DNA of 58,382 nucleotides from Bacteroidales bacterium. Lineage in GTDB: Bacteria > Bacteroidota > Bacteroidia > Bacteroidales > UBA932. Below are positions 1-12,553 of this stretch, piece after piece. How positions within the stretch are numbered: position 1 is the first letter of the stretch; every line of letters begins with the position of its first letter. The notes under the pieces were generated by a model. The model searched no databases. It was not told where the DNA came from and saw only the letters and a program-made list of their open reading frames with translations. The DNA lies in the NCBI GenBank assembly GCA_016290725.1, contig JAEEUZ010000001.1, positions 1-58,382 on the forward strand. Direction: 5' to 3'. A program made the translations under genes and the position numbers.

Positions 1-1262
1 CAATAAGTATCCCGGAAGGCGGTTCCCGTTACCGAAGGCGGCGTTGAACCTATCCAATAGCAATTAATATTGCCAGAATCTCTGAAAACGTTTCCGCTGA
101 AGCCGGTTACACTGGATGGGAAAACAATCGAGTTTAGTTTTGCTGCTGATCTTAATGCAGAATTACCAAAAGTGGCCAAGCCATCGTTCAGCACTATTGC
201 CTCAAGGCTACTACAGCCTTGGAACGCACTTGAATTGAGCGCAGTTATACCTCCGGGCAGTATAATCTGCTTCAACGAAGTATTGCCTGAGAATCCGACC
301 AGACCTCCGGTAAGGCCGAAGAATACACATTCATCGAAATAGGTGGCGCCACTCAATACAGAAGCATCAAGAGAAGTGATCGCGGCAGCCTGGGCTACGG
401 TAAATGAGTTGCCATAAGCGGTTTTAAGGACAGGGTCCCTGAAAGAAATCACATCGGATCCCTTTTTCAGCGTCGGAGTGTGAATATTCAGGATACTATT
501 CCTATTGAAGTCTGCAGATTTCGTGGTATAAGCCACGCCAATCGTATTGTCGGCATAAGTGAAGAGTAGCCAGAAACCATTGGTGAGCGTACCGGGGAAC
601 AACGCGATAAAATAGTCGGTATCGGTTGCGAAAGTATCAGAACCTGAAGGGGGAAGAAGAGTCACAACGTTAGCGCCGCTCTTGACATCCTGAATAATCG
701 GAACTCCGCTGGAAGACATTTTAATCTGAACTTTGCCCGCAATGTTTTCGTTGTTGGCTCCCTTTATGGTGACGCGCTTGATATTGGCCGCGGGGACCTG
801 GAATTTCAAGTAAGACGGGAAATTCTTGAAATCAAGGGTATTCGTGGTCGTTTTCGCAATGCTGATATTCAATTCGTCCGCGAACGAGCCGGCCTTTGCC
901 CTCTGAATTGCAGGCAGCGTAGTGGTGATATTACCGGATCCGCTTATTACGGCATTGGGATCATACGGATAGAGAGCATACCAAGGGCTTCCATTCTCAA
1001 GATCGACTTCAAATGTTGCGGATTCTCCGCTGTCTGTAGTTTCTACCCGCTCATTGGTGGTTCCGTCAAAGATCGAGATGGCGTCACCGCTCAACCAGTA
1101 AACTTTGTTACCAGCAACAAGTTCAGTCTTGGTTATATCGTTAGTAGCAACGAACACCTTGTGTTCTACTTTTCCTTCTTTTGAATCAATCTGATTCTCA
1201 AGTTTTTCGGTGCATGCGACCATGGCGGCGGCAGCAAGAATAATGCAATAAATCTTTTTCAT
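1..1262 (-). CDS. Surface lipoprotein with fimbrillin-like N-terminus and BspA-type leucine-rich repeats (runs off window edge; missing from ORF track)
   Basis: Manual translation from ATG at 1262: MKKIYCIILAAAAMVAC (lipobox), ITKT, YALYPY, then LRR_5-like SLKQIILPGGITALNSSAFQGCSSLEAIVL; no stop seen before position 1. Confidence 0.8.
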   Translation of the reverse strand, partial: MKKIYCIILAAAAMVACTEKLENQIDSKEGKVEHKVFVATNDITKTELVAGNKVYWLSGDAISIFDGTTNERVETTDSGESATFEVDLENGSPWYALYPYDPNAVISGSGNITTTLPAIQRAKAGSFADELNISIAKTTTNTLDFKNFPSYLKFQVPAANIKRVTIKGANNENIAGKVQIKMSSSGVPIIQDVKSGANVVTLLPPSGSDTFATDTDYFIALFPGTLTNGFWLLFTYADNTIGVAYTTKSADFNRNSILNIHTPTLKKGSDVISFRDPVLKTAYGNSFTVAQAAAITSLDASVLSGATYFDECVFFGLTGGLVGFSGNTSLKQIILPGGITALNSSAFQGCSSLEAIVLNDGLATFGNSALRSAAKLNSIVFPSSVTGFSGNVFRDSGNINCYWIGSTPPSVTGTAFRDTY

Positions 1263-1433: not shown

Positions 1434-2423
1434 TTATTCATAAATATGTGTTTTTAAAAACTCCACGAACAGGTCCAGACACTCCTTGTTTTTGTCGGAA
1501 CTCCCTGTAAGGCCGTGCCCATACCAAGGATAGATATGACACTCAACCGTCTTCTGCCCGGCCTTTTCAAGGGCATCCGCAAATCTTTCTGCCTGCGAGT
1601 AGTGCACCGAAGCGTCACCTGTACCGTGAAAGAGTTGCACTGCCACCTGCCTGTCCTGCGGAATCAGATACACGGGAGAATAATCCTTTATCCTTTCGGG
1701 CTCCACATCAAAAAAATACTTTCGAACATGGGGTTTCTTCCCGTTTTTCCAGTAATCCAGATGGGGGGCCATGTCATATACTCCCGACCAGCCCGACAGC
1801 ACCTTGGCGCAGGGCTCGGTCATAGCCATCATCGCCGAAAGATGTCCTCCGGCGGAACTGCCGGCGAAAGCCAGGCGGGTAACGTCCAGATTGTATTCCT
1901 TCGCATGATCCGACAGATATTTCACGGCATCGTGAAGGTCCTGCATGGTAACATCTATGTCGACATTATCCTGACCTATCATAGAGTACTCCACGCTTAC
2001 GCCCGCAAACCCGCAATATCGGGCCACATATTTAGCATATTTCACAAAACTCCTGGCATTCCCGGCCGACCAGCCTCCGCCATGAATGAAAATCACAACG
2101 GGTACAGGACTCTCCGCTTTCTCCGCTGGAGCTATGAACATATTGAGTTCCCTGTCAGGATAGGCTTTGTAAAAAACCTCTTCGCACCGCACTTCCTTGA
2201 TGATGGACGAGGGGATGACAGGTTTCCTATCATAAGGCTCATATAAGCCCTCCGGCTCCGCACCGTCAAGGACACTCAGCGTCTTTGAATCCAGCGTATA
2301 GCTCCCATCTTCCTGCGGATCAAGCCTCATGGAATAGCGATTTATGATACGCTGATTCTGGGCGCCCAATCCAAAGGAGGGGGCCAAAAGCAAGGCAAGA
2401 CATATCAGGATAGCTCTTTTCAT
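1434..2423 (-). CDS. Secreted alpha/beta-hydrolase (carbohydrate esterase/lipase, HSL-like)
   Basis: Signal peptide, HGGGW oxyanion motif, GSSAG nucleophile, HGTGD and C-terminal GH. Confidence 0.85.
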   Translation of the reverse strand: MKRAILICLALLLAPSFGLGAQNQRIINRYSMRLDPQEDGSYTLDSKTLSVLDGAEPEGLYEPYDRKPVIPSSIIKEVRCEEVFYKAYPDRELNMFIAPAEKAESPVPVVIFIHGGGWSAGNARSFVKYAKYVARYCGFAGVSVEYSMIGQDNVDIDVTMQDLHDAVKYLSDHAKEYNLDVTRLAFAGSSAGGHLSAMMAMTEPCAKVLSGWSGVYDMAPHLDYWKNGKKPHVRKYFFDVEPERIKDYSPVYLIPQDRQVAVQLFHGTGDASVHYSQAERFADALEKAGQKTVECHIYPWYGHGLTGSSDKNKECLDLFVEFLKTHIYE

Positions 2424-2445
2424 ATCGGGAGCTCTTCAATTAAGC

Positions 2446-2853
2446 TTACGCGCAACCAACAGTAATTAGAAGATTCGCGAACGTACGCTTCTCGCCGGTG
2501 GCGATTGCCAGACGGAGCGAAGGCTTGCTGCATTCATCGTAGAACTCGAACCTGCCAAGGCGGCGGAGTTCCAGGCCTTCCAGCATGGAGTCGAATTCCG
2601 CGAAGATGTCGGGATCGGGCCCCTCGGAAGGTTGCATCACGGTAGCCTCTTCAACGTTGATAATAGACTGGAGGGCGTCCAGGACGTCCGTAACCGTGGG
2701 CAGGCCTGGGCTCAGGGAGACCCAGATCTTTTCGGCATCGGCCGTCTTGCTTGCAAGAGGATAATTACCGTCGGCGATAAGAATCCTGTCGCCGTGCCCC
2801 AGACGGCTCACAGCCGCCAGGATCACCGGATTGATACATTTACCTTTATTCAT
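2446..2853 (-). CDS. RbsD/FucU family sugar mutarotase/pyranase
   Basis: LGHGDRILIADGNYP, RFEFYD and IATGE motifs. Confidence 0.9.
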   Translation of the reverse strand: MNKGKCINPVILAAVSRLGHGDRILIADGNYPLASKTADAEKIWVSLSPGLPTVTDVLDALQSIINVEEATVMQPSEGPDPDIFAEFDSMLEGLELRRLGRFEFYDECSKPSLRLAIATGEKRTFANLLITVGCA

Positions 2854-2864
2854 ATTACCGTTGT

Positions 2865-3479
2865 TTATTTTTCATTCTCTCGTAATTCTCCCAACTTTCC
2901 ACCGGGATGGCACCGGACATACTTTTCCGGATTCCAGTCCTTCTCCACCTGGAGCATTACGCTCAGGGCTTCGAGGATGAGCATTTCCGCATTCACGGAA
3001 TTGCGCGGGGCCCTGTTCAGCGGGCCTCCTTCTTCAGCGACACCGGCAAGGAGCACAACTTCGGAATGCTTTGCCAGCCAGCTCTCCGGATTGCCGGTAA
3101 CACCAATTACCTTGCAGCCGTTCATATGCACGGCATTTACAGTGGCCTTGAGTTCGGACGTCTCGCCGGAATTGGAGATGGCTATCACCACGTCGCCCGC
3201 CACCAGCTGGCCGCAGGAGCCGTGAACAGCCTCAGTGCCGTGAAGGAAGGTGGCAGGATTTCCGGTCGACGACAGGAGCGATGCCGCGAATGCCGCCACG
3301 TGGCCGGGCTTGCCGATGCCGGTGACGTGCAACCTGCCGCCCGCGGCCTGCGAGGCGAGGATGAGTTCAGCGGCCTCGCTGCATGAGGCGAGGTCAATGC
3401 CGTCAATGTAAGAGCTGAAACTCTTCTTGGCCGAGGTGAGGAACAGTTCGACCGCCTTTATGCTTTTTTGCTGTATCAT
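2865..3479 (-). CDS. SIS-domain sugar-phosphate isomerase, KdsD/KpsF/GutQ-like, without CBS domains
   Basis: TGIGKPG, HGTEAVHG, ISNSGET, PLNRAP, HPGGKLG; start re-called at MIQQK (3479), overlapping the kinase stop. Confidence 0.85.
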   Translation of the reverse strand: MIQQKSIKAVELFLTSAKKSFSSYIDGIDLASCSEAAELILASQAAGGRLHVTGIGKPGHVAAFAASLLSSTGNPATFLHGTEAVHGSCGQLVAGDVVIAISNSGETSELKATVNAVHMNGCKVIGVTGNPESWLAKHSEVVLLAGVAEEGGPLNRAPRNSVNAEMLILEALSVMLQVEKDWNPEKYVRCHPGGKLGELRENEK

Positions 3480-4438
3480 ATCTTTGCCCCCCTTTCTTTC
3501 ATCAGAGCCTCCACCTTGTCCATCGAGGGCAGAGAAGGAATGGCGCCGAAACCGCAAACGGTAATGGCGGCCGTATGGACGGCGAGCACGAGCGCGTCTT
3601 CAATCGACAGCCCTCCGGCATAACCGACGCAGAACGCTCCCACAAAGGAGTCGCCCGCAGCCGTGGGGTCGACCACGTTTGTCATCTTCACGCACGGAAC
3701 CAGTTTGATGCCATCCGGCGTGCAGTGGGCCGCACCCCTGTCGCCCAGGGTGATTATCACATTCTCCACGCCTTTACCCATGAGCACCTTCGCGGCCTCC
3801 TTGAGGGCTTCGTCGGTAAGACGCCCTTCGGCATCCGTCTTCACGCCCGTGAGCATGGCCGCCTCCGTTTCGTTGGGGGTGAGGAAGGTGACGCAACGCA
3901 GGAGTCCTTCAGACAGCGGAGCCGCCGGAGCAGGATTCAGCATTACCGGCACGCCGGTGTCGTGTGCGATGTGGGCCACGTATTCGGTGACCTCCATCTT
4001 GAGCTCAAGCTGCATAACCACCAGGTCGTAGGCCTTGATGCCGTCCTTTAGCCAGGCAAGGTCCCCCGGAGCAAGGTCGTAGTTGGCGCCGGGATAAACG
4101 ATGATGCGGTTCTGCACCCCCGATGCGCCGTTCTGGATTTGGATATGACCTATTGCCGATGGGTGTTCTGCGCTTATCTTCACGTGGCTGGTATCCGCCC
4201 CGGAAGATTTGAGCGCTTCAAGCAGCTCCTTTCCGAAGGAATCGTTGCCCACGCAGCCGACCATATCCACGCTTGCGCCAAGCCTTGCGGCCTGAACAGC
4301 CTGGTTGGCGCCTTTCCCGCCGGGAGCCGTGCGGAAACCGTTGCCGATGACCGTTTCTCCAAGATTGGGGACCCTTTCTGCCAGGGCCACCAGATCCATC
4401 ACGAAACTGCCTACTACAAGTATCTTTGGTTTATTCAT
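3476..4438 (-). CDS. rbsK: Ribokinase-family (PfkB) pentose kinase
   Basis: GGKGANQAVQAARLG, NPAPA, PNETEA, DPTAAGDSF. Confidence 0.85.
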   Translation of the reverse strand: MNKPKILVVGSFVMDLVALAERVPNLGETVIGNGFRTAPGGKGANQAVQAARLGASVDMVGCVGNDSFGKELLEALKSSGADTSHVKISAEHPSAIGHIQIQNGASGVQNRIIVYPGANYDLAPGDLAWLKDGIKAYDLVVMQLELKMEVTEYVAHIAHDTGVPVMLNPAPAAPLSEGLLRCVTFLTPNETEAAMLTGVKTDAEGRLTDEALKEAAKVLMGKGVENVIITLGDRGAAHCTPDGIKLVPCVKMTNVVDPTAAGDSFVGAFCVGYAGGLSIEDALVLAVHTAAITVCGFGAIPSLPSMDKVEALMKERGAKI

Positions 4439-5891
4439 GTTCCACTTTTTTGCTTATCGTGGTTATTATGAGTCCGACGAGGAAGATTGTAGTCGTGCCG
4501 AACACTATGGTTAGATATGTATGGATGGGGCTCTTGAACACCGGCAGGCTCATCCATGCTATTACGCACAGGCCAAGGGCCACGCCCAGTATCGCCCCGA
4601 CGCGATTCGGATTCTTATGCACCAGCGCCAGGAGGAACAGGCCCAGCATGCCGCCGCTGAAGATGGACGAAAGTTTCCACCATGCGTCCAGCACGCCGTT
4701 TATGCTCATCATGGCCAGGCCGATGAGGATGCCCGCGACTCCAACCACTGCAGAAGCGGTGTATAGCACGGTCATATGCGCCTTCTTCTCATCGGCAATC
4801 GGCTTGCGGCGGATCTTCTTGTAGAAGTCCGTGAAGACGATGGTGGCTGATGAGTTGATGCTGGTGGCCACCGTGCTCATGCCGGCGGAGAAGAGGGATG
4901 CGATCACAAGGCCGGTGAGGCCGGTGGGCAGGCCGTGCACGATGAAGTACGGGAACACCTTGTCGCCGGCCGTTCCTGCGGGCAACAGGTCCGGCTGGGC
5001 GGTGTAGTAGGAATAGAGCGCAGTGCCGATGTACACGAACACCAGTGACACCGGGATGTAGAGCAGGCCTCCGAATAGCGTGGCCTTTACCGCTTCTCCA
5101 GTGCTCTTGGCGGTCATATAGCGCTGTACGTAGTTCTGGTCGATGCCGTAATTCTGCAGGTTTATGAAGATGCCGTATATGAGCACAACCCAAACCGTGG
5201 GTTCGCGAAGCGTTGCGCTGAGGCTGCCCAGGCTGAACTTCCCGTCGGCCGCGGCGATGCTGAACAACTGACCCGGGCCTTCGGGCATACCGAAGGTGAG
5301 TATGAGCGCACATATCACCGCTCCGGCGATAAGGATGAGACCCTGGATCGCATCGGTCCACACAACCGCGGAAATGCCACCCAGCACCGCGTAGATAAGT
5401 GTGAGTGCTCCGGTCACTATGATTATGGTGCCGATGTCCCAGCCGAACATGGTATTGATGGGAATGGCGAGCAGCAGGAGAATGGAGCCCACGCGGCAAA
5501 CCTGGGTGAGCAGGTAGCAGATGGCCACATAGCCGCGCGCCCAGTAGCCGTAGCGGTCTTCCAGGAACTGGTAGGCCGATACGCTGCCGATGCCGCGATA
5601 GAGCGGAATGAATATCTTTGCCGCCAGCCACGTGGCGATGGGGATGGTGAAACTGAAGATGAGCTGGTTCCAGTTGCCGGCGTAGGAGCCTCCGGGGAGG
5701 CCGAGGAATGAGATGCTGCTCACAAAGGTGGCGAAGATGGACATGCCCACCACCCAGGTGGGGATGGCACCTTCGGCCTTGGTAAAGGCATCCGTACCCT
5801 TGCTGCTCTTCTTTACGAAACTGCAGCCGAACAGGGCGACTCCTCCTACGAAGACAAAGAACACCAGGTAGTCTATCCAGGTAATCTCCAT
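4431..5891 (-). CDS. Sodium:solute symporter (SSS family)
   Basis: Many TM segments; MSIFATFVSSISFLG, GGISAVVWTDAIQ, DQNYVQRY. Confidence 0.92.
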   Translation of the reverse strand: MEITWIDYLVFFVFVGGVALFGCSFVKKSSKGTDAFTKAEGAIPTWVVGMSIFATFVSSISFLGLPGGSYAGNWNQLIFSFTIPIATWLAAKIFIPLYRGIGSVSAYQFLEDRYGYWARGYVAICYLLTQVCRVGSILLLLAIPINTMFGWDIGTIIIVTGALTLIYAVLGGISAVVWTDAIQGLILIAGAVICALILTFGMPEGPGQLFSIAAADGKFSLGSLSATLREPTVWVVLIYGIFINLQNYGIDQNYVQRYMTAKSTGEAVKATLFGGLLYIPVSLVFVYIGTALYSYYTAQPDLLPAGTAGDKVFPYFIVHGLPTGLTGLVIASLFSAGMSTVATSINSSATIVFTDFYKKIRRKPIADEKKAHMTVLYTASAVVGVAGILIGLAMMSINGVLDAWWKLSSIFSGGMLGLFLLALVHKNPNRVGAILGVALGLCVIAWMSLPVFKSPIHTYLTIVFGTTTIFLVGLIITTISKKVEHE

Positions 5892-6796
5892 TATCTGTAG
5901 TCTTTAAGGGTTTCAAGGATGGCGGCCACCTTTGCCTTCATCTCCGGGCCGAAGGCGGTATACGGCAGGGGCATGAAGCCCGAGCAGATGCCCTTCACCT
6001 CGAGGGCGCACTTGATGGCCTTCACAAAGCTGGCGTCACTGCCGGGCTCCAGGCCGTAGAGGCTGTCAGAGAGGAACATGATTCGCTTCTGAAGCCTGCG
6101 GGTCTCTTCCAAATCGCCCGCGGCGGCAGCCTTGTACGTCTTCACGAAGAGTTCCGGGAAAAGGTTCGCGCCGCCGCTCACACCTCCGTCGGCTCCGGAC
6201 AGCACGGCTGCAGCCATCTGCTCTTCCGGACCCATGTAAAGGGCGAAATCGGTGCCGCCGAAATGGAACAGCAGGCTCTGGAAGTAGCTCTGGTTGCCGG
6301 AGGAATCCTTGCAACCTACGATATTGGGGTGCTTGGAGAGCTCCACCACCGTGCCCACGTTTATGAAGGTTTTGACTTTGGACGGCATATTGTAGAGGAA
6401 TACCGGGAGAGGGCACCTGTCGGCAAGGGCCTTGTACCACGCAATCTGTTCCGCCTGATTGGCAGGGAAATAATACGGGGCGGCTGCAACCACTCCTGCG
6501 GCGCCGCACTTCTTAGCGTGTTCCGCGAGGGCAAGGCTGTCTTCCAGAGATGTCTCTGTCACGCCCACCAGCACCGGCACCCGGCCGGCGACATGCCGGG
6601 TAACGAGTTCCACATAATCGAAACGGAGCTTCATCGGAAGGCTCTGGCTCTCGCCTGTGGTACCGAGCACGAATATGCCTGCCACTCCGGCTTCGATCAT
6701 GCGGTCGGCAATACGATTTGCTCCCGCCTCGTCGATATGGGTCGCATCCAGCAGAGGAGTGATCATCGGCGGTATTATTCCCTGAATCTTTTTCAT
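5891..6796 (-). CDS. DHDPS/N-acetylneuraminate lyase family pyruvate-dependent aldolase
   Basis: GIIPPMITP, LGTTGE, LYNMP (Tyr), GCKDSSG (Schiff-base Lys). Confidence 0.9.
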   Translation of the reverse strand: MKKIQGIIPPMITPLLDATHIDEAGANRIADRMIEAGVAGIFVLGTTGESQSLPMKLRFDYVELVTRHVAGRVPVLVGVTETSLEDSLALAEHAKKCGAAGVVAAAPYYFPANQAEQIAWYKALADRCPLPVFLYNMPSKVKTFINVGTVVELSKHPNIVGCKDSSGNQSYFQSLLFHFGGTDFALYMGPEEQMAAAVLSGADGGVSGGANLFPELFVKTYKAAAAGDLEETRRLQKRIMFLSDSLYGLEPGSDASFVKAIKCALEVKGICSGFMPLPYTAFGPEMKAKVAAILETLKDYR

Positions 6797-6804
6797 ATTA
6801 TATA

Positions 6805-6892
6805 ATATGTAGTTAAATCGTTATAATTCCAAGTTGTGTTTTAAATTATATATATGTAGTTAAATCGTTATAATTCCAAGTTGTGTTTTAAA
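6805..6892. repeat. Tandem duplication of a 41-bp unit (period 47) upstream of the aldolase gene
   Basis: atatgtagttaaatcgttataattccaagttgtgttttaaa at 6805-6845 and 6852-6892. Confidence 0.95.
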
Positions 6893-6910
6893 CAGGATCG
6901 ACCAGGCGTT

Positions 6911-7921
6911 TTATTCAATTATTTCCGGGGATAGGACTATCTGCTCCCTCAAAGGCTTCTTGTGGGGGCTTGAGTTAATGTGGGCCATAATGGCTTCCAT
7001 AGCTTTGCTGGCGAAAGAATCGACCGGCTGGCTTACGTAGATGATGCCTGACCCGTAGATGTCGAAAAGGGGGTTGCGGTCGAAGCAGGCCGCCTTGAAG
7101 TCTTTCGGGATGCTGAGCCCGCATTTGTAGATTTCCGATATCACCATGACGGCGAGGGTATTGGTGGCCATCATGAATGCATCCACTCCTCTTTCGCGAG
7201 CCGAAGACAGGTAGGCCGACACGTTTCCGTACTCGTTGTGGGCGAAACGCTCAATGTGAATACTGTCCGACAGGCCGGCAGCCTTCATGGCGTCGACGTA
7301 GCCCTGCTCTCGGTCGCGGGTGTTGGAAATGCTCATCGAATAAGATACCATATCGATGTTCTTTGCCCCCTTGTCGATCAGCATACGGGTGATCGTGCGG
7401 GCAGCCTCGCGGTTGTCCAGCACCACGCTGCTCACGTCCAGCCCGGGCACCTGGCGGTCCAGAAGAACCACATTTATGCCAGCCCCGACGGTTTCGCGGA
7501 TAATGCCGTCAGCCCCGTCGCAGGGAACCAGGATGAGCCCGTCCACGCCTTTGTTCAGCAGCAGTTCCACGACACGGCGGAACTTGTCCGGATTCTCATC
7601 AGAACTGCCGAAGATTACATTATAATTATAGGCGTAGGCCTGGTCCTCCATGAAGCGTGCGATTTCCGCAAAGAAAGGATTGGCGATATCCGAGAGCACA
7701 ACCCCTATCGTATTGGTGCGGCCCGAGCGCAGTGCACGGGCCGATGTATTGGGCTTGTAATTGAGTCTGTCGGCAACCGCCAATACCCGCCTGGATGTCT
7801 CCTGGCCCACCCGGTAAATGTTCTTGCCGGAGGCGTAGTTGCTCATCACGAAGGATACCAAGGCCGTGGACACCCCGGCCTCGCGTGCTATGTCTTTAAT
7901 GGTTACCGCTCTAGTGCCCAT
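6911..7921 (-). CDS. LacI family transcriptional regulator
   Basis: TIKDIAREAGVSTALVS HTH, YKPN..ARAL, NPFF sugar-binding domain. Confidence 0.93.
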   Translation of the reverse strand: MGTRAVTIKDIAREAGVSTALVSFVMSNYASGKNIYRVGQETSRRVLAVADRLNYKPNTSARALRSGRTNTIGVVLSDIANPFFAEIARFMEDQAYAYNYNVIFGSSDENPDKFRRVVELLLNKGVDGLILVPCDGADGIIRETVGAGINVVLLDRQVPGLDVSSVVLDNREAARTITRMLIDKGAKNIDMVSYSMSISNTRDREQGYVDAMKAAGLSDSIHIERFAHNEYGNVSAYLSSARERGVDAFMMATNTLAVMVISEIYKCGLSIPKDFKAACFDRNPLFDIYGSGIIYVSQPVDSFASKAMEAIMAHINSSPHKKPLREQIVLSPEIIE

Positions 7922-7944: not shown

Positions 7945-7966
7945 CAAATATAGCTAAAACGATTTA
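7945..7966 (-). promoter_or_regulatory. lacI -7 box (TATATTTG) with adjacent candidate LacI operator TAAAACGATTTA
   Basis: Match to the Bacteroidetes TAnnTTTG -7 consensus; CG-centred quasi-palindrome also present at 6814-6825 and 6861-6872. Confidence 0.55.
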
Positions 7967-8425: not shown

Positions 8426-8468
8426 CCGATATATTTCAGTATATTTGCATCAAGTAAAGTTCGTCTAT

Positions 8469-9887
8469 ATGAAAATCATTGGTCGCGACGCAGAAAACGC
8501 AAAACTCAAGTCCTGGTACAGATCCGGCAAAGCCGAATTCATCGCCATTTACGGCAGACGCCGTGTAGGAAAAACGTACCTGGTGAATACCTTCTTCGAC
8601 AACCTGTTCACCTTTGACGCCACAGGCATCATCGGCGGCACCCGCACCGAAGAACTCGACGCCTTCTACTCCGCCCTTGTCGAGTACGGTTATTCCGGCC
8701 CCAAGCCCAAGAAGTGGATGGAAGCCTTCGAATCCCTGAAAGGCCTGCTGAAAGAGAAAATCGTCAAAGGAAAACGCGCCGTGGTCTTCATCGACGAACT
8801 CCCTTGCCTGGCCACGCCCAAATCAGACCTCGTCAAAGCCCTGGACTACTTCTGGAACAAATGGGGCTCCCGCCAGAAAGAACTGATGCTTATCGTCTGC
8901 GGCTCCGCCACCTCCTGGATTGTCCGCAACATCATCGACAACAAAGGCGGCCTCCACAACCGTATCACGCACGAAATGCACCTCTTCCCGTTCCACCTCA
9001 AAGAAACCAAGGAATTCCTGCAGGCGAACAAATTCAAGTGGAACGACATCACCGTCCTCCAGGCCTATATGATTCTGGGCGGTATACCGTACTATCTGGG
9101 CCTGCTGGATTCCGGAATGTCCCTTGCCGACAACATCGACGCCCTTTTCTTCGCCGAAGGTGCCCAGCTTCGCGGTGAGTATGAGCGCCTCTACAAGTCT
9201 CTCTTCAAGACCCCGGAGCGCTACAAAGCCATCATCAAACTCCTTTCCGACACCAAGAAAGGCCTCACCCGCAAGGAGATTGCCGAGAAACTCAAGGTCC
9301 CCAACAACGGCCACCTAAGCGACATGCTGGAAGACCTCGTAAACTGCGACTTCATCCGGCACTACAACGTCCTTGGCAAGAGCGTCCGTTCCAGCGGAGG
9401 CCTCTACCAGCTCGTGGACTTCTTCTCCCTCTTCCACGCATCCTTTATCAAGAGCAAGAATACAGACCCCCACTACTGGCAGCACACGCTGAACACCGCC
9501 ACCCAGAACAACTGGTACGGACTCAGCTACGAGAAAGTGGCCATGGCCCACATCCCGCAAATCCTTCGCGCCATTGGAATGGACCGCATCCTCACCGAAT
9601 ACTACTCCTGGCGCAGCCAGTCCTCAGACCCGGGTGCCCAGATCGACCTCATCATCGACCGGGCCGACGGTTTCCTGAACATCTGCGAAGTCAAATACTC
9701 TAAAGGTGACTATGCCCTCACCAAATCCGAAGCCGACAAAATAGACAACCGAGTGAGCGCATTCCAGCAAAAAACCGGCACCGACAAGAACATCCTCGTC
9801 ACCCTCATCACCGTCAAACCGGTCAAAGAAAACGCCTGGACCGACACCGTCAGCAGCTTCGTTTCCCTCCAAGACCTCCTCGTATAA
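8469..9887 (+). CDS. AAA-family ('archaeal-type') ATPase with winged HTH and C-terminal PD-(D/E)xK-like domain
   Basis: Walker A GRRRVGKT, Walker B VFIDE, GGIPYYL, QIDLIIDRAD..CEVK; TATATTTG at 8440-8447 supports the 8469 start. Confidence 0.88.
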   Translation: MKIIGRDAENAKLKSWYRSGKAEFIAIYGRRRVGKTYLVNTFFDNLFTFDATGIIGGTRTEELDAFYSALVEYGYSGPKPKKWMEAFESLKGLLKEKIVKGKRAVVFIDELPCLATPKSDLVKALDYFWNKWGSRQKELMLIVCGSATSWIVRNIIDNKGGLHNRITHEMHLFPFHLKETKEFLQANKFKWNDITVLQAYMILGGIPYYLGLLDSGMSLADNIDALFFAEGAQLRGEYERLYKSLFKTPERYKAIIKLLSDTKKGLTRKEIAEKLKVPNNGHLSDMLEDLVNCDFIRHYNVLGKSVRSSGGLYQLVDFFSLFHASFIKSKNTDPHYWQHTLNTATQNNWYGLSYEKVAMAHIPQILRAIGMDRILTEYYSWRSQSSDPGAQIDLIIDRADGFLNICEVKYSKGDYALTKSEADKIDNRVSAFQQKTGTDKNILVTLITVKPVKENAWTDTVSSFVSLQDLLV

Positions 9888-10392: not shown

Positions 10393-10521
10393 ATGAACAA
10401 TAAGCCGGCCTACGAGATGCCCATTACCGAGCAGATTGAGATTCTTCTGGAATCCGCTTTCGCGAGCTTTAAGCCCAACCAGTCTTATCAAGAAGACGAG
10501 AATGAATTCAAGTTTGACTAA
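10393..10521 (+). CDS. 42-aa peptide with YxxP motif (MNNKPAYEMPITEQIEILLESAFASFKPNQSYQEDENEFKFD)
   Basis: Manual translation; TAAATTTG -7 box at 10362-10369; 16 nt upstream of the lipoprotein ATG. Confidence 0.65.
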   Translation: MNNKPAYEMPITEQIEILLESAFASFKPNQSYQEDENEFKFD

Positions 10522-10537
10522 AATTGTTCTCCGTACC

Positions 10538-12553
10538 ATGAAAAGAAGCATATTTATTTTCGCGGCCCTGATCCTTGCCGCCACATCATGCCAGAAAACA
10601 GAGATGGAGAACATTGAGCCGGCAAAGCATGTGCGCACCTTTACCGCCTCTTTCTCCGAGCTTACGAAAACAAGTCTTGATGGTCTTACTCCGGTTTGGG
10701 GCGACGGCGATGCCGTTTGGTTTTCCGATGGCGTGAACCAGGAAATTGTAGGTGTCCTGCCGGAAGATATCGGCAAGCCCACGGCTCAGTTCTCTACCTC
10801 ATCCTTGACTGGCGAGGTCATCTACGCCTGCTATCCGGCCTCTTATGCTATCGGCCACATCTCCGGGACCCACGTCATCTTAAACGTGCCGCAGTCAACG
10901 GACGGCTCTTTCAAGAATGCAAATATATGCGTGGCCACGACAAACGACAATAATCTGTCTTTCAAGAATGCCACCTCCATTATCCGCTTTACCAAGGCGA
11001 CGGCCGACGTAGTGTTGCTCTCCCTGATATGTCAGGGCGACAATTTCCTGGCCGGGTGGATGTCCTTCCGCCACTGGGACGAATCATATAATGGGTACAC
11101 CTATCATAGAGCAAGCAGTATCGAGATTGACATGAGCGGCCCCGGGCCATACTATGCCGCGGTGTTTCCGCGTACTATGCCTGCCGGGTCGAAGATTGTG
11201 ATGACCACCAGCACGGGCGCTCAATATGTCCGCAACATCAATGTAGAGAACACCTTTACCCTCAATAAGATAAAGACTATCTCGGTCGATGCCGCCTTCT
11301 CCGGCGCCACCCTTGTCTCCGAAGGCTGGGCCGGCTCCGGCACGGAGGATGATCCATACCTGATTGCTTGCGAGGCCGATCTTAAACTGCTGTCCGACAA
11401 TGTGAACAACCGGGTTAGTTATTACTCTGGAGTCTACTTCAGGCAGGTCGGTGATATCTCGGTTTCAAGTTTCCGCCCCATCGGCAGTACGAATGAAGGA
11501 AATGGATTCCAGGGCCATTATGACGGCGATTCCCACACGATTACCATCAACAGTTTCGACCTGAGTTATCTTTCAACGCAAAGCGCAAATGGTTACGAGG
11601 TGTATATGGGCCTCTTCGGATGGGTAAAGGGCACATCTGGTACTACACCGAAGTCGGTTATTCGCAATGTCCGTGTGGCGGGAACCATCGACACGGGAAA
11701 TAACTTTGTCCGGGGGCCTCACTACTACGGCTCCATCTGCGGTTATGCCACAGGAAACGTCTTATTCGAGCAGTGCGGCTCGTCTCTGGGGATGCGGCTT
11801 TTCGGCTATTATGCAAATTACGCCAGTCGGGCAAAACTGATGGCGGCGGGCGGACTTGTCGGTTATGCGGCTTCTACCGTACAGATCAACCGATGCTACA
11901 ATACCGGCAACCTTGCGGCTTATTCCAACGCCAATTCCGGCAACCGCTTTTATGTAGGCGGCATCTGCGGGAATCTGTACGGGGGATTGATCACCTTCTG
12001 CTGCAATACAGGCAACATTACCGGCCAGATTACACAGTCCGGTTATGGCGCTTTCGTTGCCGGAATTGCCGCATCCAATACGACTTCCGGCAGCGTGGAG
12101 GGCTGTTATAACCAGGGTAATATCATAGCTTACGGCGCCAATTCTACGTCGGCCAAAGCGGTGGGTATCACCTACAATGCCCAGGCGAGATCCTGCTACA
12201 ATTCAGGAACGGTCAAGTCATACTATGCCGGCAGTTCAACCACCGAAACCAGCTACAGCGCCGGCATTTCCTATCGGCAATCCGGCACTTACCAGAACTG
12301 CTACTATCTCCAGGGATGCGCATCCACAGATATGCTTGGTTCCGGCGGCACACTTACCAACTGCACCTACTTCATCAAAGGTGACGGGACAAATGGCGGC
12401 CTCATAGAAGGCGACACCACCAGAAGCCTCCTGGATGCGATGAACAGCTACCTGGCGGATGTCCATAACAGCGATCATTACTTCTACGCCAGCCCCGACG
12501 CGGATCATTTCCCCGTCCTGGACTACGTCTCCAGGAATATCCTGAACTATTAG
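10538..12553 (+). CDS. Surface lipoprotein with fimbrillin-like N-terminus and GLUG-like/beta-helical repeat C-terminus
   Basis: MKRSIFIFAALILAATSC lipobox, LTKT, YACYP, GSGTEDDPYLI, repeated GGxxG...CYNxG units. Confidence 0.8.
   Translation: MKRSIFIFAALILAATSCQKTEMENIEPAKHVRTFTASFSELTKTSLDGLTPVWGDGDAVWFSDGVNQEIVGVLPEDIGKPTAQFSTSSLTGEVIYACYPASYAIGHISGTHVILNVPQSTDGSFKNANICVATTNDNNLSFKNATSIIRFTKATADVVLLSLICQGDNFLAGWMSFRHWDESYNGYTYHRASSIEIDMSGPGPYYAAVFPRTMPAGSKIVMTTSTGAQYVRNINVENTFTLNKIKTISVDAAFSGATLVSEGWAGSGTEDDPYLIACEADLKLLSDNVNNRVSYYSGVYFRQVGDISVSSFRPIGSTNEGNGFQGHYDGDSHTITINSFDLSYLSTQSANGYEVYMGLFGWVKGTSGTTPKSVIRNVRVAGTIDTGNNFVRGPHYYGSICGYATGNVLFEQCGSSLGMRLFGYYANYASRAKLMAAGGLVGYAASTVQINRCYNTGNLAAYSNANSGNRFYVGGICGNLYGGLITFCCNTGNITGQITQSGYGAFVAGIAASNTTSGSVEGCYNQGNIIAYGANSTSAKAVGITYNAQARSCYNSGTVKSYYAGSSTTETSYSAGISYRQSGTYQNCYYLQGCASTDMLGSGGTLTNCTYFIKGDGTNGGLIEGDTTRSLLDAMNSYLADVHNSDHYFYASPDADHFPVLDYVSRNILNY

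Follow-up and report, generated by a model that had tools for sequence, protein, structure and literature searches.

A candidate operon for Kdo catabolism through D-arabinose in a Bacteroidales bacterium

Operon layout and proposed route

The stretch of DNA analyzed here (58,382 nucleotides of contig JAEEUZ010000001.1 of a Bacteroidales bacterium, hereafter the window) carries seven co-oriented open reading frames (ORFs) on the minus strand between positions 1434 and 7921 (Table 1). They encode a LacI-family regulator, an aldolase of the dihydrodipicolinate synthase (DHDPS)/NanA fold, a sodium/solute symporter (SSS), a ribokinase-like kinase, a sugar isomerase (SIS) domain protein, an RbsD/FucU-family protein, and an esterase. 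The first-pass annotation had described a partly overlapping set for the use of keto-deoxyoctonate (Kdo), and all the ORFs were indeed found in place, with their families assigned by Pfam. Four of the genes overlap by 1-8 bases (aldolase/SSS by 1, SSS/kinase by 8, kinase/SIS by 4), and the remaining gaps span 11-114 bases (lacI-aldolase 114, SIS-rbsD 11, rbsD-esterase 22). The SIS gene starts at the ATG at 3479, the alternative TTG at 3557 falling within the kinase gene.

Table 1. Features of the candidate operon, with positions in the window
Feature	Position	Strand	Length and evidence
LacI-family regulator	6911..7921	-	336 aa; Pfam LacI + Peripla_BP
Candidate LacI operator upstream of lacI	7955..7966		CG-centred palindrome, 1 mismatch to idealised form
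lacI-aldolase spacer, perfect 41-nt direct repeat	6805..6892		candidate operator in each copy (6814, 6861)
DHDPS/NanA-fold pyruvate aldolase, predicted Kdo aldolase	5891..6796	-	301 aa; Pfam DHDPS 3e-57
SiaT-type SSS sodium/solute symporter, predicted ulosonic-acid importer	4431..5891	-	486 aa; Pfam SSF 6e-48
Ribokinase-like PfkB kinase, predicted D-arabinose 5-kinase	3476..4438	-	320 aa; Pfam PfkB 8e-65
Single-domain SIS isomerase, predicted catabolic arabinose 5-phosphate isomerase	2865..3479	-	204 aa; Pfam SIS 8e-19
RbsD/FucU-family mutarotase/pyranase	2446..2853	-	135 aa; RbsD_FucU PF05025 2e-30
Alpha/beta-hydrolase esterase, N-terminal hydrophobic leader	1434..2423	-	329 aa; BD-FAE 6e-31

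A synteny survey, one of the checks that the first-pass annotation had proposed, recovered the six-gene core order LacI-aldolase-SSS-kinase-SIS(-RbsD) in four relatives (loci L035, L038, L039, and L133; 68-92% protein identity), the contig of L038 stopping after the SIS gene. This recurrence indicates that the operon is more than a chance arrangement. Where the window has the esterase, L035, L039, and L133 have a SusC/SusD pair after rbsD.

We propose that the operon probably serves the catabolism of Kdo via D-arabinose into the pentose phosphate pathway, every substrate assignment in it being inferred from sequence. Kdo is present in nearly all Gram-negative envelopes and in plant rhamnogalacturonan II (RG-II), and its cleavage products are pyruvate and D-arabinose. 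Kdo would enter through the SiaT-type symporter and be broken down by the aldolase to pyruvate and D-arabinose. With the RbsD/FucU protein providing D-arabinose in a suitable ring form, the ribokinase-like kinase would convert it to arabinose 5-phosphate (A5P), and the SIS protein would isomerize A5P to ribulose 5-phosphate, the entry point to the pentose phosphate pathway. LacI is predicted to repress the operon through a conserved palindrome.

Kinase, SIS isomerase, and RbsD/FucU protein

The kinase passes the TIGR02152 ribokinase model (304.9 against a cut-off of 299.65) and fails NF008353 (249.6 against 341). Ribokinases carry a GSxNxD motif whose Asn contacts ribose; here the motif reads GSFVMD, with V13 at the Asn position. 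Of 77 aligned homologs, 74 have a residue in this column, always V, M, or I, and the Asn is kept in the PDB ribokinases compared and in the separate canonical ribokinase of the host (contig C166). A D-arabinose 5-kinase activity (EC 2.7.1.54) is known from the older enzymology of Propionibacterium.

The SIS protein had been described as a KdsD-like isomerase lacking CBS domains, and Pfam does find an SIS domain and no CBS. The likeness to KdsD holds for fold and active site: its nearest relatives in sequence and structure are the A5P isomerases 5uqi, 3etn, and 2xhz (33-35% identity; TM-score 0.73-0.81 by query length), together with 3fxa of Listeria. Residues K57, H60, E83, H86, E150, and H191 align with 5uqi and 3etn, are invariant in the 78-79 homologs having a residue at the position, and match the Lys, His, Glu, His, Glu, His active-site set of E. 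coli KdsD. It does not extend to membership in KdsD proper. The protein carries the motifs GKPGH, HGSCG, and APR, and its subfamily GKP or GKC, HGSCG, and APR, whereas the KdsD family motifs are GKS, HGDLG, and APT(S/T/A)S, the first two reading GKS and HGD(L/I/M)G in all 24 KdsD sequences compared. It scores 130 on TIGR00393 against a cut-off of 203.7. In a quick tree, in which the KdsD rows were chosen by motif, the 79 subfamily members formed one branch against the 24 KdsD domains (SH-aLRT 100). A housekeeping KdsD was therefore rejected on the motifs, the TIGR00393 score, and the missing CBS pair. Within the same quick tree, the 11 Bacteroidales proteins formed a single branch (support 99) amid Bacillota sequences, which suggests a transfer that replaced the isomerase FucI.

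The RbsD/FucU protein matched its family model and stayed below the cut-offs of both specific models (RbsD 51 against 93; FucU 26 against 141).

The kinase-SIS pair across genomes

To follow this gene pair, GTDB was scanned with an alignment of the SIS subfamily, and the best 80 of 531 confirmed loci were analyzed (about 710 stretches are estimated in total). These loci belong mainly to Oscillospiraceae and Lachnospiraceae, with additional ones in Bacteroidales and spirochaetes. A kinase lies near the SIS gene in 76 of the 80, directly upstream in 74, and the two are fused in L109. RbsD/FucU follows SIS in 53/80, a DHDPS-family aldolase is present in 43/80, and YhcH in 25/80; the relatedness of the loci inflates such counts as independent support, a first point against our interpretation. 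For comparison, a random 20 kb would hold a DHDPS-family gene about 2% of the time, taking the two such genes in the 2.4 Mb host genome. The aldolases are drawn from at least five separate branches, and 36 of the 43 aldolase-bearing loci also carry a TRAP, TTT, or SSS transporter. Twenty-two of the 25 loci with YhcH, an anomerase feeding the ulosonate aldolase NanA according to PMC8141875, carry an aldolase as well.

The esterase gene is present as described, but none of the 80 SIS-anchored loci showed a close homolog at this position (one weak BLAST match overall). A paralogous domain, 50% identical, is encoded on host contig C224, and the esterase is probably accessory to the operon.

About 30 Clostridia and Treponema loci besides L060 (8045-8971) encode a divergent DHDPS-family aldolase clade in which CQSSE replaces GTTGE. 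Almost without exception, these genes have a TRAP transporter on one side and kinase-SIS-RbsD on the other, and a PDB search found no close structure for them (best E 1e-14).

Eight of the 80 loci hold genes of glycoside hydrolase (GH) families GH172 (6), GH183 (5), or GH116 (3), the last of which includes a D-arabinofuranosidase. None of these eight holds an aldolase, and three hold a FucP-type permease. Among the best 80 loci, FucI was found in none, and the closest SIS protein found (90% identical, L033) sits in such a D-arabinan locus. GH172 and GH183 enzymes liberate D-arabinose from D-arabinan, and the characterized D-arabinan polysaccharide utilization locus (PUL) of D. gadei carries a predicted fucose isomerase, as described in PMC10115798. 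With D-arabinan hydrolases beside kinase and SIS and FucI missing, the pair occupies the place where a D-arabinose route is needed. We therefore hold with good confidence, on comparative grounds, that the lower module would convert D-arabinose to ribulose 5-phosphate.

The ribokinase score and the RbsD-family gene, along with the altered SIS motifs, could instead point to a ribokinase with a non-canonical pentose- or hexose-phosphate isomerase (acting for example on ribose 5-phosphate) and a ribose-yielding acid. Also on this side, two loci (L085, 5266-10627; L077, 4966-10618) have a member of the SIS subfamily but no kinase; genes for an SSS transporter, cytidine deaminase, and uridine phosphorylase precede it, and a divergent phosphopentomutase is also encoded there. 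Such a setting suits arabinonucleosides equally, and the two loci are a candidate route from arabinonucleosides (or ribonucleosides) to ribulose 5-phosphate. The replaced sugar-site Asn, the canonical ribokinase and RpiB-like motif matches that the host already has, and the linkage to D-arabinofuranosidases and exchange with FucI, which indicate D-arabinose, make a ribose-yielding acid quite improbable. A plain ribose operon was rejected on the lost Asn, the D-arabinan linkage, and the exchange with FucI.

Aldolase and the exchange with FucI

The aldolase has the Schiff-base Lys (K163), the Tyr (Y135), and the GxxGE pyruvate motif as GTTGE (TTGE at 46-49), features shared across the superfamily, as well as GPEE at 189-192. 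Its scores lie below the cut-offs for NanA (TIGR00683, 95 against 382; NF003164, 124 against 281) and DapA (TIGR00674, 185 against 206). Lys140 replaces the conserved Arg of the YNxPxR motif, a DapA feature kept in the DHDPS-family paralog of the host on contig C161. Housekeeping DapA and NanA were rejected on these scores and on the replaced Arg. The best PDB match was 4XKY (E 1.9e-79), deposited as a DHDPS.

The aldolase clade was found in 9/400 genomes of the family and 26/400 of the order. The 34 aldolase-anchored loci examined (every one of the 26 from the order and 8 more from the family) contain an SSS transporter of the same clade in 24 cases, FucI in 5, and kinase-SIS in 1. Twenty of them have BNR or RG-II-type glycosidases (GH78, GH141, GH140, GH95, GH127, GH106, GH105, GH28, BT1020-like), and L149 encodes a GH78+BNR fusion with the architecture of BT1013, a rhamnose/Kdo hydrolase acting on RG-II chain C according to PMC13501991.

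Locus L145, from the genus of the host, begins like the operon in the window, with LacI (64% identity), aldolase (68%), and SSS (87%), and then has FucI in the slot of kinase-SIS-RbsD, followed by SusC-SusD-DUF5017 as in L035 and L039; a ribulokinase scoring above cut-off lies farther down the contig. Two other loci (L116, L129) have the order ribulokinase-LacI-aldolase-FucI. FucI and ribulokinase convert D-arabinose to D-ribulose 5-phosphate, which is also the predicted product of the kinase with an A5P isomerase. The two sets of genes were not found together: the SIS subfamily was in 0/5 genomes with FucI loci and FucI in 0/5 genomes with kinase-SIS, three of the ten genomes being 80-85% complete.

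The linkage to arabinan hydrolases and the in-place exchange with FucI and ribulokinase together support the proposal that D-arabinose is the aldose product of the aldolase, which we consider very likely from gene context. From pyruvate and D-arabinose as products, we infer that the substrate would be Kdo or its C4 epimer.

Regulation

In relatives, the operon likewise begins with a LacI ortholog (64-72% identical), and this holds for the FucI-type L145 too. A CG-centred palindrome precedes lacI, and two further copies lie between lacI and the aldolase gene, where the direct repeat, with a period of 47 nt, doubles the candidate operator. This duplication may be biological or may be an assembly slip; the spacers of relatives are shorter (21-85 nt). 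The motif was derived from the sites in this operon and tested in relatives. Of 11 aldolase-operon regions, two of them the same DNA, 10 contained it, the FucI-type L145 and L116 included. Nine other regions gave two more cases (L033, L040), both of them D-arabinan loci with the site ahead of the kinase gene; the background is 35 sites in 2.4 Mb. The palindrome was not found in L037, which has a LacI 70% identical. A common palindrome fits shared control by a D-arabinose-related effector.

Transporter and identity of the imported acid

The best PDB match of the SSS transporter was the sialic acid transporter SiaT (5NV9, E 4.9e-65), and the substrate-contact residues given for SiaT in PMC5931594 were transferred through a single pairwise alignment. 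The equivalents of Ser60, Arg135, and Asn247 are retained and Thr63 is conservatively replaced by Ser; the carboxylate contacts Ser60, Thr63, and Arg135 read S, S, R in all 29 members of the clade. Altered are the equivalents of Thr58, Phe78, Gly81, Gln82, Phe243, and Gln250, with the glycerol-tail residues Thr58 and Gln82 becoming F and S and those of the N-acetyl pocket, Phe78, Gly81, and Phe243, becoming Q, F, and G. None of these last five residues is preserved in any of the 29 members. Such a pattern would suit a ulosonic acid that lacks the acetamido group.

Three aldolase loci (L150, 3954-6965; L147, 2067-3761; L149, 10911-12479) have an MGH1-like glycoside hydrolase gene adjoining that of the aldolase clade, and in L150 the hydrolase and the SSS transporter share a single frame of 1003 aa.

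Sialic acid catabolism (N-acetylneuraminic acid, Neu5Ac, or Kdn) with unusual downstream enzymes would account for the NanA fold, the SiaT-type transporter, and the YhcH, BNR proteins, and SASA esterases near homologs. The changes in the N-acetyl pocket and at the glycerol tail in every member of the transporter clade argue otherwise, as does the distance of the aldolase from the NanA model. N-acetylmannosamine (ManNAc) or mannose, moreover, has no need of FucI and ribulokinase. The first-pass annotation had noted that nanE, nagA, and nagB are missing from the operon; we agree, and AGE/NanE-II (PF07221) was not found in the host genome either (NagA and NagB were looked for in the operon). A sialic acid is thus an extremely improbable substrate.

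If the lower module is a D-arabinose route, Kdo is strongly favored as the imported acid on the evidence of gene context, since it is the common natural acid yielding D-arabinose. The same lower module could also be fed by another acid (the C4 epimer, or O-acetyl or amino Kdo), or the aldolase could act broadly on RG-II products, including 3-deoxy-lyxo-heptulosaric acid (Dha). This reading draws on the esterase of the operon and on SASA esterases that relatives encode downstream. In L115, the aldolase has a BT1020-like Dha-hydrolase domain close by, and B. thetaiotaomicron is reported to secrete D-Kdo among its RG-II products (bioRxiv 2026.03.13.711244). Cleavage of Dha would, however, yield a four-carbon acid unfit for a pentose kinase and an A5P isomerase, and the operon has no aminotransferase. 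We consider another acid unlikely.

Several further points count against Kdo catabolism as the function of the operon. The species that secretes Kdo is presumably also the source of 4XKY, the closest structure to the aldolase. It also carries BT_2813/BT_2814, an uncharacterized pair of SSS and NanA-like proteins (PMC8461474); bioRxiv 2026.03.26.714468 labels BT2814 a GH16, a label set aside here. The ribokinase cut-off is passed by the kinase, if narrowly, and the SIS protein departs from KdsD at three conserved motifs and sits on a long branch apart from it. The Listeria structure 3fxa, which we take to be a glucose-6-phosphate isomerase, is equally close to it, so that the fold does not fix the substrate. 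Neither D-arabinose route was present in the stretch examined for 28 of the 34 aldolase-anchored loci, and 29 of the 80 SIS loci, some from short contigs, have neither aldolase nor arabinanase. The nucleoside-salvage setting of L077 and L085 suits ribose and arabinose alike. Finally, a tblastn search of the host genome with two BNR queries found no candidate Kdo hydrolase.

Host genome and direction of the pathway

The host genome (2.4 Mb, 96.7% complete) has its nearest SIS relatives in genomes annotated as Bacteroidales, the named ones being metagenome-assembled genomes from the ruminant gut. The SIS subfamily is patchy, occurring in 3 of 90 genomes of the genus. A KdsA above cut-off, a KdsB-family gene, and WaaA were not found in the host genome, and neither were FucI and ribulokinase. 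LpxA is present, and a transketolase domain was detected by hidden Markov model search. With KdsA, KdsB, and WaaA not found and transketolase present, the host could not obviously turn A5P to Kdo synthesis, and it could make use of ribulose 5-phosphate. The catabolic, non-sialic direction assigned in the first-pass annotation thus agrees with the lack of detectable Kdo synthesis and transfer genes and of NanE-II in the host.

These same data bear on a biosynthetic or salvage role, in which the operon would stand in for KdsD/KdsA and provide the envelope with A5P or Kdo. The SIS gene is the sole KdsD-like gene of the host, LpxA is present, and aldol reactions are reversible. However, KdsB and WaaA, required for Kdo activation and transfer, were not found in the host, 87 of the 90 genus genomes do without the SIS subfamily, most carriers are Oscillospiraceae and Lachnospiraceae, which are free of lipopolysaccharide (LPS), and the architecture includes an importer and LacI. 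We regard this role as very improbable.

Of 120 well-assembled genomes of the genus, only 13 gave a WaaA match, and most members may produce a Kdo-free lipid A (the search for LpxA covered the host alone). Two loci (L136, 8395-9731; L137, 5496-7951) differ from most of the genus: each pairs a kdsA-like gene with an ordinary kdsD-like neighbor, and L137 has a kdsB-like gene too.

The host would be a cross-feeder on Kdo, or a user of weakly BNR-like proteins encoded on contig C224. This contig (3062-20349) has a SusC/SusD locus whose pair is 44-48% identical to the one after the operon in relatives; it also encodes YhcH, the esterase paralog, and an FG-GAP protein that shares 70% identity with a protein from the region of the FucI-type operon. 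The C224 locus is possibly the partner PUL of the host.

Relation to known systems

The operon would work like the nan operon (SiaT-NanA-NanK-NanE, YhcH), in which importer, class I pyruvate aldolase, kinase, isomerase or epimerase, anomerase, and regulator also stand together, while its proteins fall outside NanA, SiaT, KdsD, and, judging by the sugar-site Asn, RbsK. A PfkB kinase, an SIS aldose-ketose isomerase, and RbsD/FucU are found here, compared with a ROK kinase, NanE, and NagA/B in nan, and this operon holds no ManNAc kinase/epimerase and no NagA/NagB. The aldolase lies far under the NanA cut-off, and the transporter lacks the N-acetyl pocket. NanA cleaves KDO weakly according to PMC13220900, and Kdo aldolase (EC 4.1.2.23) is named as an activity in PMC12199768. 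PMC8461474 states that B. thetaiotaomicron does not use Neu5Ac and that BT_2813 keeps all SiaT residues, unlike the transporter clade described here.

The SIS protein shares fold, catalytic set, and the missing CBS pair with the single-domain A5P isomerases (c3406 of E. coli CFT073, 5uqi; B. fragilis, 3etn; the SIS domain of KdsD, 2xhz). It differs in its motifs (GKP/HGSCG/APR against GKS/HGDLG/APT), in its coupling to a kinase, in its occurrence mostly in hosts without Kdo synthesis, and in its predicted direction toward ribulose 5-phosphate. A Gram-positive A5P isomerase from C. tetani is reportedly in print. The route through FucI and a ketopentose kinase (the fuc pathway; D. gadei PUL42) is predicted to start from the same sugar, takes the same slot in sister operons, and in its FucI-ribulokinase form would end in the same product. 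In the route proposed here, phosphorylation would precede isomerization, and the enzymes are unrelated.

No literature with genes assigned to Kdo catabolism or to a D-arabinose kinase/A5P isomerase route was found in a search that left most subscription journals outside. According to bioRxiv 2026.03.13.711244, no gut microbe apart from the RG-II degrader has a confirmed pathway for D-Kdo. We cautiously favor a model in which kinase-SIS-RbsD would be a D-arabinose hub in gut Bacillota, Bacteroidota, and Spirochaetota with interchangeable front ends, namely Kdo aldolases of at least five branches with TRAP/TTT/SSS importers, D-arabinan hydrolases, or an arabinonucleoside salvage set. The aldolase versions would then be the missing gut and rumen consumers of RG-II and LPS Kdo, giving genes to EC 4.1.2.23 and to D-arabinose 5-kinase. 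The operon names candidates for the transporter, aldolase, kinase, and isomerase of Kdo use, and related operons occur in cultured strains; carriers of the module available in culture include Oscillibacter ruminantium GH1, Anaerotruncus colihominis DSM 17241, Caproiciproducens sp. R1, and Pseudoflavonifractor phocaeensis An858. If our proposal is correct, a second D-arabinose catabolic route would be defined, a family now labelled ribokinase, KdsD, and DapA would need re-annotation across the estimated GTDB stretches, and a Kdo-preferring aldolase and a D-arabinose kinase would become available for chemo-enzymatic synthesis.

Neighboring features

Scans for sigma-70 promoters and terminators gave counts at chance level (5 against 5.1 expected and 7 against 6.7). 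Downstream of the operon, a BspA-type leucine-rich repeat (LRR) lipoprotein-like ORF (3-1262, minus strand) runs off the contig end; it is 36-38% identical to genes 3' of the operon in L155 and L156, and the unit may extend past the contig end. On the plus strand, positions 10436-12553 hold a 705-aa ORF with a lipoprotein-like start and without a Pfam match, and positions 8445-9887 an archaeal-type AAA ATPase (PF01637) that is oriented divergently from the operon and seems to have no connection with it.

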